Positions 2,807 through 20,330 of a stretch of DNA of 64,000 nucleotides are shown piece after piece. Positions within the stretch are counted from its first letter, which is position 1. Every line of letters starts with the position of its first letter. Both the position numbers and the translations under genes were made by a program. Source of the DNA: a virus (taxonomy: Duplodnaviria; Heunggongvirae; Uroviricota; Caudoviricetes). Location: IMG/VR virus record IMGVR_UViG_3300010347_002503, positions 1-64,000 of that record, one strand, 5' to 3'. The notes beneath the pieces are model-generated. The model had not been told where the DNA came from, did not search any database, and worked only from the letters and a program-made list of their open reading frames with translations.

Positions 2807-3721
2807 ATGAAATACTTTTTCCTTTCCATTCTTTTCGTTTGCAATCTTTGCAATGCCCAACCGTGGAGTTTTGTTGCCATGGGAGATACTCGTGGAACAA
2901 GTTCTTCTGACCCTCTAAACGAATCCATTATGTCAGAAATAGCAAACGAAATCGTTCGTCAACAAGCCGAGTTCGTCATTGTTGTTGGTGACTTGGCATA
3001 TTCAGGGTCATATACTTGGTTCAGTAATTGGAAAACCGTTATGGCTCCAGTTTATCAAGCAGGAATTCCCGTTTTTCCCGTGTTGGGAAATCACGATGTT
3101 AATGATATTACTTCCTACCTCTCTCTTTTCAAAAACGATCTTCCAACAAATGGACCCGCAGGGGAAACATATCGAACATTCGCATATTATCACAAAAATG
3201 TTCTCATGATTGGAATGGACAATTATGTAACTCCCGCACGAGTTAACCAGACATGGTTGAATCAGGTATTAGCCCAAAATAAACTTCCACACGTTTTCGT
3301 TTATGCTCACCAACCCGCATTCAAAGCAAATCACACCGATTGTATGGATGATTATCCTGCTAATCGGGATGTATTTTGGACGAGCTTGATAAACAGTGGT
3401 TGTAAAATTTATCTCTGTGGACATGACCATTTCTATGATCGTCTTAAAGCGGGAGGAATTTATCAAATGATTGTTGGAAATGGAGGAGCACCCATAAATT
3501 CATCATATTCGTATAATGGAAATAATTCGTCTTGGAATCCTGTGAACCAATATCATGCTGCTCAATACGGTTATATATTGGTTACTATTGATGGATACAA
3601 AGTTACGGTTTCAATGTTTGAAAGAGTGGGTGCAGGAATTTACACAGAAAAAGACAAGTGGAGTTATTTGGTCCCAGACCCCCATCCATTTCCTCCTCAA
3701 AATATGAGGACTTCAAAATAG
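2807..3721 (+). CDS. secreted calcineurin-like metallophosphoesterase
   Basis: Signal peptide; phosphoesterase motifs GDxxY (VVGDLAY), GNHD (VLGNHD) and GHDH (CGHDHFY). Confidence 0.75.
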   Translation: MKYFFLSILFVCNLCNAQPWSFVAMGDTRGTSSSDPLNESIMSEIANEIVRQQAEFVIVVGDLAYSGSYTWFSNWKTVMAPVYQAGIPVFPVLGNHDVNDITSYLSLFKNDLPTNGPAGETYRTFAYYHKNVLMIGMDNYVTPARVNQTWLNQVLAQNKLPHVFVYAHQPAFKANHTDCMDDYPANRDVFWTSLINSGCKIYLCGHDHFYDRLKAGGIYQMIVGNGGAPINSSYSYNGNNSSWNPVNQYHAAQYGYILVTIDGYKVTVSMFERVGAGIYTEKDKWSYLVPDPHPFPPQNMRTSK

Positions 3722-3734
3722 TTTTACTTTGTTG

Positions 3735-3762
3735 TTGACTTTTTCCGAAAAACTAGTATAGT
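3735..3762 (+). promoter_or_regulatory. sigma70-like early promoter TTGACT-N16-TATAGT
   Basis: TTGACTTTTTCCGAAAAACTAGTATAGT. Confidence 0.5.
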
Positions 3763-3839
3763 ATTCCATGTTGAAAGTAAGAAAGGATTCAACACATCGA
3801 CCTTGGCAACGAAAAAGTTGCGAAAAAGTGAGAAAGATG

Positions 3840-3873: not shown

Positions 3874-4060
3874 CATAGGGTGAGAGTATCACCTAACAAA
3901 AGAAAATGAAACAATCAAAACAACATTGGTTTAAGTCAGCGGGCGAGCAAAGCCTTAATGGAAGTGCTTTGTATATTGATAATCGCCCAGAAAGGATCGG
4001 CTTCTGAGGTAAACCGTACATAGAAACCTCGAAGCCGACCAGAAAAAGGTCGGCTTTTTG
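3874..4060 (+). ncRNA. candidate small RNA / micro-ORF transcript (promoter-to-terminator unit without a long ORF)
   Basis: Bounded by promoter 3840-3867 and terminator 4031-4062; contains only a 33-codon ORF (3906..4007) with no SD. Confidence 0.3.
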
Positions 4061-4062
4061 TT
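4031..4062 (+). terminator. rho-independent terminator
   Basis: GCCGACC-AGAAAAA-GGTCGGC followed by TTTTTGTT. Confidence 0.65.
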
Positions 4063-4276
4063 GGAAAAATTTCAGAGATAGAGTTGGGTTTAAGCAAACT
4101 CCATCGGCCCTTTAAAAGGTCTGCTTTCCCAAGAGTGACAAAAAAGGTGATTGGTCAGTGGGTGTTATGACTGGAATAGTGCAGAACCCAACTGGCGATA
4201 AAGTAACTCTATGGATTACATGTGTATGGTGTCATCAATCGTATCACCGATGCAATACTCCGATAGAAAAGAAATA

Positions 4277-5199: not shown

Positions 5200-5285
5200 G
5201 CACACGTAGTCCCCTCTCGCTTCGAACGAGTTGATGCGGTAATTGGAAACTGAAACTGCGGGTTCGAATCCTGCCGTGTGTACCA
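5200..5285 (+). tRNA. atypical tRNA, 86 nt, probable Arg(UCG); D region only ~6 nt, with a 26-nt insert between the anticodon arm and the T-arm
   Basis: Perfect acceptor GCACACG/CGTGTGT, T-arm GCGGG-TTCGAAT-CCTGC, CCA; anticodon-like arm CTCG-CTTCGAA-CGAG. Confidence 0.4.
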
Positions 5286-5998: not shown

Positions 5999-6074
5999 GG
6001 TGATAGTGGTGTAATAGTTAGCATTCCAGTTTGTGAAGCTGGCGGTGCGGGAGCATAACCCGTCTATCACCCCA
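5999..6074 (+). tRNA. tRNA-His(GUG) with G-1; non-canonical T-loop AGCATAA and D-loop without GG
   Basis: G-1 plus acceptor GTGATAG/CTATCAC, loop TTGTGAA, T GCGGG-AGCATAA-CCCGT, CCA. Confidence 0.65.
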
Positions 6075-6082
6075 ATTTTAAT

Positions 6083-6167
6083 GTCACTGTGATGGAATCG
6101 GCAGACATGGTTGCCTCAGAAGCAGCCGCCGAAAGGCGTGGGGGTTCAAATTCCCCCAGTGACACCA
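6083..6167 (+). tRNA. tRNA-Leu(CAG), class II
   Basis: D-arm TGGAATCGGCAGACA resembles the E. coli Leu D-arm; loop CTCAGAA; variable hairpin CGCC-GAAA-GGCG; TTCAAAT; CCA. Confidence 0.8.
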
Positions 6168-7024: not shown

Positions 7025-7110
7025 TGATCCGTGGTGTAATTGGTAACACGCCTGACTTTGACTCAGGAGACAGTTTGTTTATGTAGGTTCGACTCCTACC
7101 GGATCAGCCA
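7025..7110 (+). tRNA. tRNA-Gln(UUG) with an anomalous 15-nt unpaired variable region
   Basis: Perfect acceptor TGATCCG/CGGATCA, canonical D-arm, arm CCTGA-CTTTGAC-TCAGG, then AGACAGTTTGTTTAT before the T-arm GTAGG-TTCGACT-CCTAC; CCA. Confidence 0.6.
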
Positions 7111-8912: not shown

Positions 8913-8914
8913 TG

Positions 8915-8985
8915 CGGTAGTCGTTCAATAGTAAGACACGACATTGCCAATGTTGAAAGGGAGTATTGCCTCCTTACCGCACCAC
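8915..8985 (+). tRNA. tRNA-Gly(GCC), non-canonical (D-loop AATAGTAA, T-arm GGAG-TATTGC-CTCC)
   Basis: Perfect acceptor GCGGTAG/TTACCGC, arm CGACA-TTGCCAA-TGTTG, CCA; lacks the GGTTC signature. Confidence 0.5.
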
Positions 8986-9062: not shown

Positions 9063-9139
9063 TTTATCCCGGTATGCGTACTGCCACACAGCCAACATCC
9101 TCGCAGTAGGTGGAATTGACTAACTGGACCGGGAGAATG

Positions 9140-9214
9140 GGTTCGAAGCTTTAATAGTGAAGCACGAAGCTTTTAACTTTGAGAAGACGGAGCATTACCG
9201 TCCGAACCCACCAA
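9140..9214 (+). tRNA. tRNA-Lys(UUU), non-canonical T-loop AGCATTA
   Basis: Acceptor GGGTTCG/CGAACCC; D GCTT-TAATAGTGA-AGC; arm CGAAG-CTTTTAA-CTTTG; T GACGG-AGCATTA-CCGTC; CCA. Confidence 0.6.
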
Positions 9215-9225
9215 TTATTTTATTC

Positions 9226-10320: not shown

Positions 10321-10416
10321 GGGGAGGTAGCTCAGAGGTTAGAGCGTCGAGCCAATGGTTGATTATATCTTCCAGTAACCCGAAGGTCGCAGGTTCAAAT
10401 CCTGCCCTCCCTGCCA
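10321..10416 (+). tRNA. tRNA with ~19-nt internal insertion (anticodon unresolved; possible intron or giant variable arm)
   Basis: Perfect acceptor GGGGAGG/CCTCCCT, canonical D GCTC-AGAGGTTA-GAGC and T GCAGG-TTCAAAT-CCTGC, CCA; 42 nt between D and T arms. Confidence 0.5.
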
Positions 10417-11470: not shown

Positions 11471-11509
11471 ACCGCTGTGCCAATCTAATAAAACAGCGGT
11501 ATCTTTATT
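11471..11509 (+). terminator. putative terminator hairpin
   Basis: ACCGCTGT...ACAGCGGT 8-bp stem followed by ATCTTTATT. Confidence 0.35.
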
Positions 11510-11582
11510 CCCTCTTGGTGTAATGGCAGCACAGAAGCCTTTGGAGCTTTTAGTTGGGGTTCAAATCCCTGAGAGGGAGCCA
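11509..11582 (+). tRNA. tRNA-Gln(UUG)
   Basis: Perfect acceptor TCCCTCT/AGAGGGA; D GTGT-AATGGCA-GCAC; loop CTTTGGA; TTCAAAT; CCA. Confidence 0.75.
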
Positions 11583-11583
11583 C

Positions 11584-11675
11584 GCAGCGGTAATCGGTGC
11601 GGTCTTCTAAGCCGTGGTCGTTAAACTCCGAAATTGGATTTGACCTTGTGGGTTCGAGCCCCACCCGCTGTGCCA
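11584..11675 (+). tRNA. atypical tRNA, 92 nt, probable Arg(UCU); D region ~6 nt, with a 32-nt insert before the T-arm
   Basis: Acceptor GCAGCGG/CCGCTGT, arm GCGGT-CTTCTAA-GCCGT, T GTGGG-TTCGAGC-CCCAC, CCA; same architecture as 5200-5285. Confidence 0.45.
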
Positions 11676-12926: not shown

Positions 12927-13009
12927 GGCCGTGTGGTGTTAAGCGAAATTTGGAAGAAGCGGTGGTTTCAAAAAATACCCCCTTGGAGGTTCAAATCCTC
13001 TCACGGCTA
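12927..13009 (+). tRNA. atypical tRNA (83 nt, no encoded CCA, extended D region; possible Leu-CAA-like loop TTCAAAA)
   Basis: Acceptor GGCCGTG/CACGGCT and T GGAGG-TTCAAAT-CCTCT; interior not foldable as a standard cloverleaf. Confidence 0.4.
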
Positions 13010-13016
13010 CTACTTT

Positions 13017-13533: not shown

Positions 13534-14115
13534 ATGAGTATTCGACAAAAGGCCAACAAAATCAAAAAAGAGCGTTGCCGCACGTTGATTGCGGTACTCG
13601 AAAACCCCAAAACCATTGAAAATATTGGTTCAGTCATTCGAAACGTTGATGCCCTTGGGGTGAGTAAGTTATACGTAATTGACGGCTACAAATTATTACC
13701 GGATAATTGGCAGGATATGCGTGAGCGGAGAAGCTTAAATAAAATCTCTGCTTCCGCCGTCAAATGGACTTATATCCATCCTTTCAAAACCACAGCGGAA
13801 TGTATCGAACATTTGAAAAGAAAGCATTTCTTGTCGGTAGTAACATCGCCGCACGTAAAAGGTAAAAAGAACGTTTCCCTCGATGAGGCCGATTTCACAC
13901 AGCACCATCTGGCGGTCTGGTTTGGAAACGAAAGTCATGGGATTTCCGACGAAGCCGTTCAAGCTGCGGAATTCTGTGTGAGCATTCCGATGCACGGTAT
14001 CATTGAAAGCTTCAATCTGGGTACATGCTCGGGTATTGTTCTATATGAGGTCACCAAACAGCGAAGACTTTTCCGAAAAAATAAACAGCAGTGCCGAACG
14101 GCTGTAATGGACTAA
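13534..14115 (+). CDS. SpoU/TrmH-family RNA 2'-O-ribose methyltransferase
   Basis: SPOUT motifs ENIGSVIRNVDALGV, VWFGNESHGIS and IPMHGIIESFNLGTCSGIVLYEV. Confidence 0.8.
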   Translation: MSIRQKANKIKKERCRTLIAVLENPKTIENIGSVIRNVDALGVSKLYVIDGYKLLPDNWQDMRERRSLNKISASAVKWTYIHPFKTTAECIEHLKRKHFLSVVTSPHVKGKKNVSLDEADFTQHHLAVWFGNESHGISDEAVQAAEFCVSIPMHGIIESFNLGTCSGIVLYEVTKQRRLFRKNKQQCRTAVMD

Positions 14116-20256: not shown

Positions 20257-20330
20257 GCCGGTGTAGTATAAAAGTATTACACTGCTTTGGTAAAGCAGAG
20301 AAGAGGGAGCGTTACCCTTCACTGGCTCCA
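20257..20330 (+). tRNA. tRNA-Thr(GGU), non-canonical T-loop AGCGTTA
   Basis: Arm CTGCT-TTGGTAA-AGCAG; T GAGGG-AGCGTTA-CCCTT; CCA. Confidence 0.6.

Follow-up and report, generated by a model that had tools for sequence, protein, structure and literature searches.

Phage genes for predicted arginine tRNAs with a rewired core, in which the D-loop appears to lie 3' of the anticodon arm

What does a phage make from a gene that has the acceptor stem, anticodon arm and T-arm of a tRNA, no D hairpin, and a long insert after the anticodon arm that carries a D-loop-like motif? Two such loci, referred to here as L1 (positions 5200-5285) and L2 (positions 11584-11675), are found on the + strand of a 64,000-nucleotide (nt) stretch of the IMG/VR virus record IMGVR_UViG_3300010347_002503 (Caudoviricetes); this whole stretch is called the window below. 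Our answer, which comparative sequence analysis makes likely, is that L1 and L2 are genes for functional arginine-accepting elongator tRNAs with a rewired core, members of a widespread class. The observations that bear on it are the topology of the secondary structure and a set of conserved motifs, anticodons confined to Arg, an enrichment of encoded CCA ends and a fit to codon usage and tRNA repertoire.

The original prediction for these loci was that both share one unusual layout, and this is confirmed from the sequence: each has a normal anticodon arm, an insert (26 nt in L1, 32 nt in L2) that contains AAUUGGA at 5241-5247 or 11632-11638, and a canonical T-arm. It described the 7-base-pair (bp) acceptor stem as perfect, and all seven pairs do form in both genes, although the first is a G1.U72 wobble, so that the stem is not entirely Watson-Crick. 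The space at the D-arm position, put at about 6 nt, is 8 nt in both loci (UAGUCCCC in L1 and UAAUCGGU in L2) and, as had been said, holds no D hairpin; the Rfam alignment shrinks the D-arm of L1 to 3 nt. The G1.U72 first pair (5200/5281 and 11584/11671) is found in 62 of 134 members of the class, these two included, and is unusual among bacterial elongator tRNAs.

The features of the two genes are listed here, with scores on R1 and R2, covariance models of the rewired fold; R2 was built without any window sequence.

5200-5285, + strand: L1, putative rewired tRNA-Arg(UCG) gene including the encoded CCA (sequence; R1 78.9 bits; R2 69.5 bits, E 2.8e-15; Rfam tRNA model 31.7 bits)
5200-5206, + strand: L1 acceptor 5' strand GCACACG, pairing with 5275-5281, first pair G1.U72
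5207-5210, + strand: L1 predicted helix A 5' strand U8 A9 G10 U11, pairing with ACUG at 5249-5252; mutual-information (MI) peaks 10x(T-8) and 11x(T-9)
5211-5213, + strand: L1 predicted helix B 5' strand CCC, facing CGG at 5237-5239; two of three pairs form
5215-5231, + strand: L1 anticodon arm UCUCG-CUUCGAA-CGAGU, anticodon UCG at 5222-5224
5240-5248, + strand: L1 D-loop-like bulge UAAUUGGAA, with GG and then an A20-like A; class bulge UAANNGGA
5249-5252, + strand: L1 predicted helix A 3' strand ACUG (pairing and covariation analyses)
5253-5257, + strand: L1 5-nt linker AAACU in the place of the variable loop; class consensus AAAAU
5258-5274, + strand: L1 T-arm GCGGG-UUCGAAU-CCUGC (sequence, Rfam alignment, RNAalifold)
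5275-5285, + strand: L1 acceptor 3' strand CGUGUGU, discriminator A, encoded CCA
11584-11675, + strand: L2, putative divergent rewired tRNA-Arg(UCU) gene including the encoded CCA (sequence; R1 63.6 bits; R2 51.7 bits, E 8.6e-11)
11591-11594, + strand: L2 predicted helix A 5' strand UAAU, facing UUUG at 11639-11642; A10:U replaces G10:C, U11.U is a mismatch
11595-11597, + strand: L2 predicted helix B 5' strand CGG, pairing with CCG at 11628-11630
11599-11615, + strand: L2 anticodon arm GCGGU-CUUCUAA-GCCGU, anticodon UCU at 11606-11608
11616-11627, + strand: joiner GGUCGUUAAACU, 12 nt and specific to L2; class joiner 3 nt, usually UAA
11628-11630, + strand: L2 predicted helix B 3' strand CCG
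11631-11638, + strand: L2 D-loop-like bulge AAAUUGGA
11639-11642, + strand: L2 predicted helix A 3' strand UUUG
11648-11664, + strand: L2 T-arm GUGGG-UUCGAGC-CCCAC
11665-11675, + strand: L2 acceptor 3' strand CCGCUGU, discriminator G, encoded CCA

The acceptor stem of L2 is GCAGCGG/CCGCUGU and its linker is ACCUU; the gene starts 1 nt past the CCA of a tRNA-Gln. All four pairs of helix A form in L1 and three of four in L2, and for helix B the counts are two of three and three of three. Each gene lies in a tRNA array whose adjoining genes share its strand.

Are these two genes peculiar to one phage? A sensitive blastn search with L1 found the same layout, with anticodon UCU, in the 635-kilobase (kb) uncultured huge phage LR745206.1, and pattern scans of IMG/VR gave about 15 further members. 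The first two patterns applied to the collections returned mostly noise (GTAGTCCCC...CTTCNAA no new member, GGTAA..GGAA.CTG.AA a single one, L136); a stricter pattern with 20 fixed bases found 21 stretches from GTDB assemblies and at least 119 from metagenomes. Of the resulting 167 distinct sequences, metagenomes contributed 126, genome assemblies 21, IMG/VR 15 and phage records 3, and the remaining 2 are the window genes; 156 are analysable for the anticodon, 148 of them Arg and 8 Ile-type. On a covariance model of the proposed fold virtually all stretches from the stricter pattern score 60-97 bits, against mostly less than 35 and at most 41 for the ordinary tRNAs of the same loci. On R2 no ordinary window tRNA exceeds 30 bits, so that, with the scores listed above for L1 and L2, the window contains exactly two members of the class. 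Those R2 scores lie well outside what chance would give.

In the class consensus the 7-bp acceptor is followed by U8 A9 R10 Y11 (helix A), C12 N13 N14 (helix B), 1 nt and the anticodon arm. On the 3' side come the joiner, NNG (helix B), the bulge UAANNGGA, RYUG (helix A), the linker, the T-arm and the acceptor 3' strand; the bulge is 7-9 nt long and its GG is invariant. Helix A pairs positions 8-11 with the RYUG directly 3' of the bulge, and helix B pairs positions 12-14 with the 3 nt directly 5' of it. The anticodon arm thus appears to cap a helix that begins at the usual start of the D-stem, with the D-loop motif as a bulge in the 3' strand of that helix, and the insert after the anticodon arm is probably not an independent variable arm. 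The original prediction is supported, and this fold refines it in one respect. The architecture lacks a D hairpin, as proposed, although positions 8-14 still appear to pair, with the segments that flank the displaced D-loop. AAUUGGA does seem to act as displaced D-loop material (UAANNGGA, an invariant GG and then A).

The evidence for helices A and B is comparative. In a 17-member MAFFT alignment that was not fitted to the structure, helix A is 92.6% and helix B 81.6% paired, with double changes in four of the seven pairs, and overall pairing falls to 39-47% when the partners are slid by 1-3 columns. Among 105 distinct model-aligned sequences the values are 97.3% and 89.5%, the pair types being GC58/AU36 at 10:52, CG68/UA20/UG5 at 11:51, GC71/AU17/CG12 at 13:40 and AU27/GC27/CG15 at 14:39. 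Because this 105-sequence alignment leans towards the model, the 148 distinct Arg members were also scanned for MI between all pairs of positions, indexed only from three anchors (the 5' end, the anticodon-stem end, AC, and the T-stem start, T). The only peaks are 10x(T-8) (1.0 bit, 97% paired), 11x(T-9) (0.5 bit, 90%), 13x(AC+5) (0.9 bit, 93%) and 14x(AC+4) (0.6 bit, 63%); flanked by the near-invariant 8.G, 9:U and 12:G, they make two antiparallel diagonals that coincide with the proposed helices.

The acceptor, anticodon and T stems also covary across the class, the acceptor pairs being 97.8% paired with double changes at all seven. Compensatory changes in every stem across 167 distinct relatives bear out the earlier argument that the shared layout is not the product of random decay. 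RNAalifold, run blind, finds only the acceptor, anticodon and T arms, with no D-arm and no hairpin in the insert; no hidden canonical cloverleaf emerged. The bulge is preceded by G in 101 of 105 sequences and followed by G or A, so that it cannot close as a local D-like hairpin. A pairing of the motif's own GG with C12 C13 (AGUCC/GGAAACU in L1, AAUCG/CGAAAUU in L2) was considered and rejected, since in the homologues the GG never varies and the pairing partner proves to be the triplet that precedes the motif. An extra pair 15:33, only 69% paired, is not claimed.

What amino acid would such a tRNA carry? The class has the hallmarks of a tRNA (7-nt anticodon loop, U33, purine at 37, T-loop UUCGANY), and the anticodons of the 156 analysable sequences are UCU (104), ACG (22), UCG (17) and CCU (5), with 8 of Ile type. 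The bacterial Arg identity set consists of A20, C35, U/G36 and A/G/U73, A20 being the strongest determinant for E. coli ArgRS (PMC9976931). An A directly follows the bulge GG in 134 of 134 members, L1 and L2 included; C35 is present in all members of the class, U or G stands at position 36, and the discriminators are A (52), G (43) and U (38). L1 (UCG, A73) and L2 (UCU, G73) both fit the requirement at 35, 36 and 73. A CCA is encoded after the discriminator in 63 of 166 members, where chance would give 2.6, a 24-fold excess.

The anticodons also suit the codons used in the window and in one cultured phage. Over 23 open reading frames (ORFs) of the window, AGA is the commonest Arg codon (27.0%) and CGA the third (23.3%), together 50%; the other Arg tRNAs of the window are only ACG and CCU, and no further UCU or UCG tRNA was found there. 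Pseudomonas phage PA11 (49.6 kb, 44.8% GC) has 38% of its Arg codons as AGA plus AGG and no tRNA that ARAGORN finds, and it carries one textbook member of the class, an Arg-UCU gene with CCA that scores 86.7 bits. Its host, P. aeruginosa, has a genome of about 66% GC in which AGR codons are rarely used.

Why have these genes escaped notice? Both L1 and L2 are absent from the 37 tRNAs that ARAGORN calls in the window, and its relaxed, intron and mitochondrial (-mt, -mtmam) modes return nothing usable at these genes; the check with mitochondrial or armless models that the original prediction had proposed, run as ARAGORN -mt, left them undetected. ARAGORN missed every member on which it was run directly (the window genes, PA11 and Vibrio phage D419), and it calls the homologue in LR745206.1 a 90-nt tRNA-Arg with shifted ends. 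The Rfam tRNA model (RF00005, gathering threshold 29 bits) gives L1 31.7 bits when this gene is searched alone, placing an insertion of about 23 nt at the variable position, and leaves it unreported in an 18.5-kb scan. In the Rfam search L2 has no RF00005 match, and its best match is tRNA-Sec (RF01852), at 27.5 bits and below the family threshold of 47, with the anticodon UCU where Sec has UCA. Phage tRNA sets are thus probably undercounted, because the standard finders miss the class.

The class is spread over cultured phages as well as metagenomes. A consensus query matches 305 phage records, 297 of them with at least 80% query coverage, among them PA11 and its relatives TC6, IME180, PSA11, vB_PaeM_Ty and PP21, Maribacter phage Panino, a second huge phage (LR756502.1) and about 288 Vibrio phages of about 114 kb. 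None of the 40 phage records listed has a tRNA annotation at the match; the features there are "none", "hypothetical protein" or "homing/HNH endonuclease", and in some of these records a coding sequence is annotated across the rewired gene. In LR745206.1 (locus L001) the rewired Arg-UCU gene, 5999-6078, lies 5 nt upstream of a canonical Arg-UCU gene, 6084-6156, and rewired and canonical forms with the same anticodon can thus coexist in one phage. The plasmid and complete E. coli genome collections gave no match to the class. Some bacterial assemblies hold copies, several of them within tRNA arrays, and isolated rewired Arg-UCU genes are found in Ochrobactrum sp. CM-21-5 (L185, 7152-7231) and in Brucella haematophila NZ_VCPE01000001.1 (L175, 6519-6598), the latter near genes for a catalase and a histidine kinase of the HWE type; neither phage nor integrase signals appear in the 8 kb examined around it.

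Vibrio phage D419 (OZ195672.1) carries its rewired Arg-ACG gene at 3997-4076 of locus L313, and its tRNA locus tags skip 0010 between 0009 and 0011. We do not read this gap as a dropped prediction of the rewired gene, since a tRNA-Asp that ARAGORN finds at 3706-3780, missing from the record, could also explain it. A lower-scoring sister form has the same rewired layout, Ile-type anticodons (GAU, UAU or CAU), discriminator A and a bulge with GGU where the Arg form has GGA; helix B lies one position away from its place in the Arg form and shows covariation (CGA/UCG, CAG/CUG, CCC/GGG). Its GGU and discriminator A match the Ile elements U20 and A73 (PMC9976931). It is found at L151 12513-12594, L153 6041-6121, L162 6975-7055, L164 1967-2046, L217 1223-1302, L229 3812-3891, L239 1029-1109 and L291 6565-6646, and no Ile-type rewired member is present in the window, where the Ile-GAU gene at 9225 is canonical.

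If they are not tRNAs of this kind, what else might the two loci be? Decayed or chimeric pseudogenes, with the D-arm lost and junk sequence gained, would account for the failure of ARAGORN at both genes in all modes, for marginal Rfam scores, for a private 9-nt insertion in L2 and for the mismatch or two in each window gene. The same layout is, however, kept in 167 distinct sequences from unrelated samples: all five helices show compensatory changes, the GGA of the bulge never varies, the anticodons are only Arg or Ile-type and CCA is far more frequent than by chance. We find decay barely credible; the chimeric fragments that the original prediction had itself raised as an alternative are disfavoured on the same evidence. 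It is also highly unlikely that these are D-armless tRNAs with an independent long variable arm of the class II or tRNA-Sec kind, in which the insert would fold on itself and the 5' nt would serve as a connector, as in mitochondrial tRNA-Ser(AGY). The L2 insert could form a local hairpin (GGUC...GACC), L2 has tRNA-Sec as its best match and the Rfam tRNA model puts the insert at the variable-loop position, but that hairpin depends on the private insertion and the tRNA-Sec score falls short of its threshold. Moreover, RNAalifold finds no conserved insert hairpin, the flanks of the bulge cannot close locally, MI ties the insert to positions 10-14 and not to itself, and the mitochondrial mode of ARAGORN does not recognise the genes.

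An interrupted or permuted gene that yields a canonical cloverleaf once a segment is removed could be imagined in a genome where insertions do occur (the window tRNA at 10321-10416 has about 20 extra nt in its anticodon arm), and ARAGORN's call of the L001 homologue as a tRNA-Arg points the same way. Against this, an exhaustive scan of 3,498 single-segment deletions, each 3-45 nt long, in L1, L2 and the PA11 gene gave no canonical Arg tRNA by ARAGORN for L1 or PA11, and the only L2 'rescues' delete its own anticodon loop and take the CCG of helix B as anticodon; permutation conflicts with the acceptor halves already at both gene ends, and we think an explanation of this kind hardly worth entertaining. 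A tRNA-like RNA that acts outside translation, whether as a decoy for a tRNA-targeting nuclease or ArgRS, a regulator, or an integration or homing target, is merely unlikely. The unusual core could hinder use by EF-Tu or the ribosome, members often adjoin HNH/homing endonuclease genes (as in PA11), isolated copies are present in Brucella and Ochrobactrum chromosomes, and LR745206.1 has its canonical Arg-UCU right beside the rewired gene. In the window and in PA11, by contrast, the anticodons supply what the phage's tRNA set otherwise lacks and correspond to codons in heavy use; the full identity set is conserved together with the 7/5 acceptor/T geometry, a 7-nt anticodon loop and CCA, which exceeds what a decoy for an anticodon nuclease needs; and a synthetic tRNA without any D-arm works in E. 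coli translation (PMC11551756), so that a rewired core is no barrier in principle.

In the working model that we favour, of functional arginine tRNAs with a rewired core, the D hairpin would be missing and the strand that leaves the acceptor would run directly into the anticodon stem, the anticodon arm taking the place of the D-loop and the D-loop itself bulging out of a single long helix on its 3' strand. This helix (4 + 3 bp and the anticodon stem) would replace the D-stem and the stacking layers of the core. The invariant GG of the bulge would dock on the T-loop to form the tRNA elbow, the invariant A that follows would serve as the A20 identity element for the host ArgRS, and a 15:48-like Levitt pair may join the linker's last U to the second A of the bulge. 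Such tRNAs would be processed, charged and used on AGA/AGG and CGA, codons that these phages use heavily. Our guess is that the rewired core is a tolerated alternative that spread among phage tRNA clusters; more speculatively, rewiring may also let these tRNAs escape host or phage factors that recognise a normal D-arm.

Several points weigh against this model. RNAalifold omits helices A and B, thermodynamic folding not favouring such short helices, and the single-sequence folds of the two genes are no better than those of shuffled sequences (z -1.3 and -1.2). Three of the proposed pairs hardly vary (8.54 is always U.G, 9:53 always A:U, and 12:41 is C:G in 101 of 105), so that covariation cannot confirm them, and U8 and A9 might instead be engaged in tertiary contacts, as they are in normal tRNAs. 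The equation of the bulge A with A20, and of the bulge GG with G18 G19, is drawn by analogy. Helix B and the anticodon stem of L1 contain a mismatch each, and L1 is not strictly required, since the canonical Arg-ACG could read CGA if its A34 were deaminated. L2 is an outlier in its long joiner, in the linker ACCUU, in the U.U of helix A and in having the lowest score of the class, inserts as long as its own occurring in only 3 of 148 members; L2 could be impaired.

The window itself is a divergent tailed-phage genome that encodes a baseplate wedge protein and an SbcCD-like nuclease and has all its large ORFs on the + strand. Megablast of its tRNA region and tblastn of a 561-amino-acid ORF against the phage collection gave no match, so that the phage has no close sequenced relative there. 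Its dense tRNA cluster spans about 4.2-22 kb, and CCA is encoded in all 37 of the tRNAs called by ARAGORN (36 in register, one call offset by one base). Three tRNAs above the Rfam threshold, at 8914-8981 (30.5 bits), 9139-9210 (42.4 bits) and 20257-20327 (48 bits), are uncalled by ARAGORN, so that the window has at least 42 tRNA genes. The gene at 10321-10416 is otherwise canonical (Rfam 55 bits, encoded CCA), and ARAGORN reports it as '???' with a 2-base anticodon; its anticodon arm has 31 nt where the model expects 11, and the extra nt may represent a short intervening sequence carried by this phage tRNA. A tRNA-Gln(UUG) gene of 86 nt at 7025-7110 folds with a 5-bp long variable arm, unusual for Gln, and a second Gln(UUG) gene, at 11509-11582, is of normal length. 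A tRNA-like element at 12927-13012, missed by both ARAGORN and Rfam and scoring 19 bits on R1, has a 7-bp acceptor, the T-arm GGAGG-UUCAAAU-CCUCU, a long-range helix GGUGUU/AAUACC and an inner hairpin with the D-loop-like AAUUUGGAA; it has no 7-nt anticodon loop and no CCA (its end is A-CUA), and may be a decayed gene or another odd form. Inside the cluster, the ORF at 13534-14112 encodes a SpoU-family methyltransferase (Pfam E 7e-27), the family to which TrmH (Gm18 in the D-loop) and other tRNA 2'-O-methylases belong.

How does the class compare with tRNAs of known structure? It shares with canonical tRNA-Arg (RF00005) the 7-bp acceptor, the 5-bp/7-nt anticodon arm, the 5-bp T-stem with its UUCGANY loop, a 5-nt connector before the T-stem, the CCA end, the Arg identity nucleotides (with an A after GG, C35, U/G36 and A/G/U73), the U8 A9 start and an occurrence in phage tRNA arrays. 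It differs in having no D hairpin between positions 9 and 26, in the D-loop-like bulge 3' of the anticodon arm, and in the strand after the acceptor, which would pair with both flanks of the bulge and continue into the anticodon stem. The D-armless tRNAs of mitochondria, such as mammalian and nematode tRNA-Ser(AGY/UCU), likewise lack the D hairpin and have a short link from acceptor to anticodon stem; that link is a short unpaired connector, and these tRNAs have no D-loop motif, degenerate T-loops and a Y or boomerang shape (PMC7609411, PMC11551756). In contrast, the class keeps the GG D-loop motif, a canonical T-loop and two covarying helices, and its host system is bacterial. The synthetic D-armless 'mini HisT', evolved for E. 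coli by deletion of bases 11-25, is usable by a bacterial synthetase, EF-Tu and the ribosome, a pnp mutation being needed for its stability (PMC11551756); it is artificial, whereas the class is natural and widespread and keeps an equivalent of the D-loop. Class II tRNAs, tRNA-Sec and allo-tRNAs resemble the class in having extra sequence between the anticodon and T arms and a total length of 80-92 nt, but they keep the D-arm and their extra hairpin is self-paired, whereas the insert of the class would pair with the 5' strand and holds the D-loop motif.

A 2020 review of non-canonical natural tRNAs has nothing resembling the class (PMC7609411), and full-text literature searches returned no description of it, although most subscription journals lay outside their coverage, so that an earlier description is possible; the class is apparently undescribed. 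According to a 2024 paper, every known bacterial tRNA is a cloverleaf and cytosolic tRNAs vary in structure only by arm length (PMC11551756); a natural class in which the strand topology is changed would form an exception to this.

We lean somewhat towards the broader conclusion that a natural and widespread non-cloverleaf tRNA, with its D-loop moved 3' of the anticodon arm and its D-stem built from three strand segments, works in bacterial translation, where phages would use it to decode Arg (and, in the sister form, Ile) unseen by the standard finders. If this is true, then a rewired tRNA core poses no obstacle to RNase P, ArgRS or IleRS, EF-Tu or the ribosome, phages regarded as tRNA-less, such as PA11, carry a tRNA, and current phage tRNA repertoires and codon-compensation analyses are incomplete. 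The rewired fold would also be a ready-made scaffold for the engineering of orthogonal tRNAs. The proposal is directly testable, because members are found in cultured phages of Pseudomonas aeruginosa, Vibrio and Maribacter. For the tRNA core itself the implication would be that it can apparently do without the D hairpin but not without position 20 and the elbow contact made by GG.

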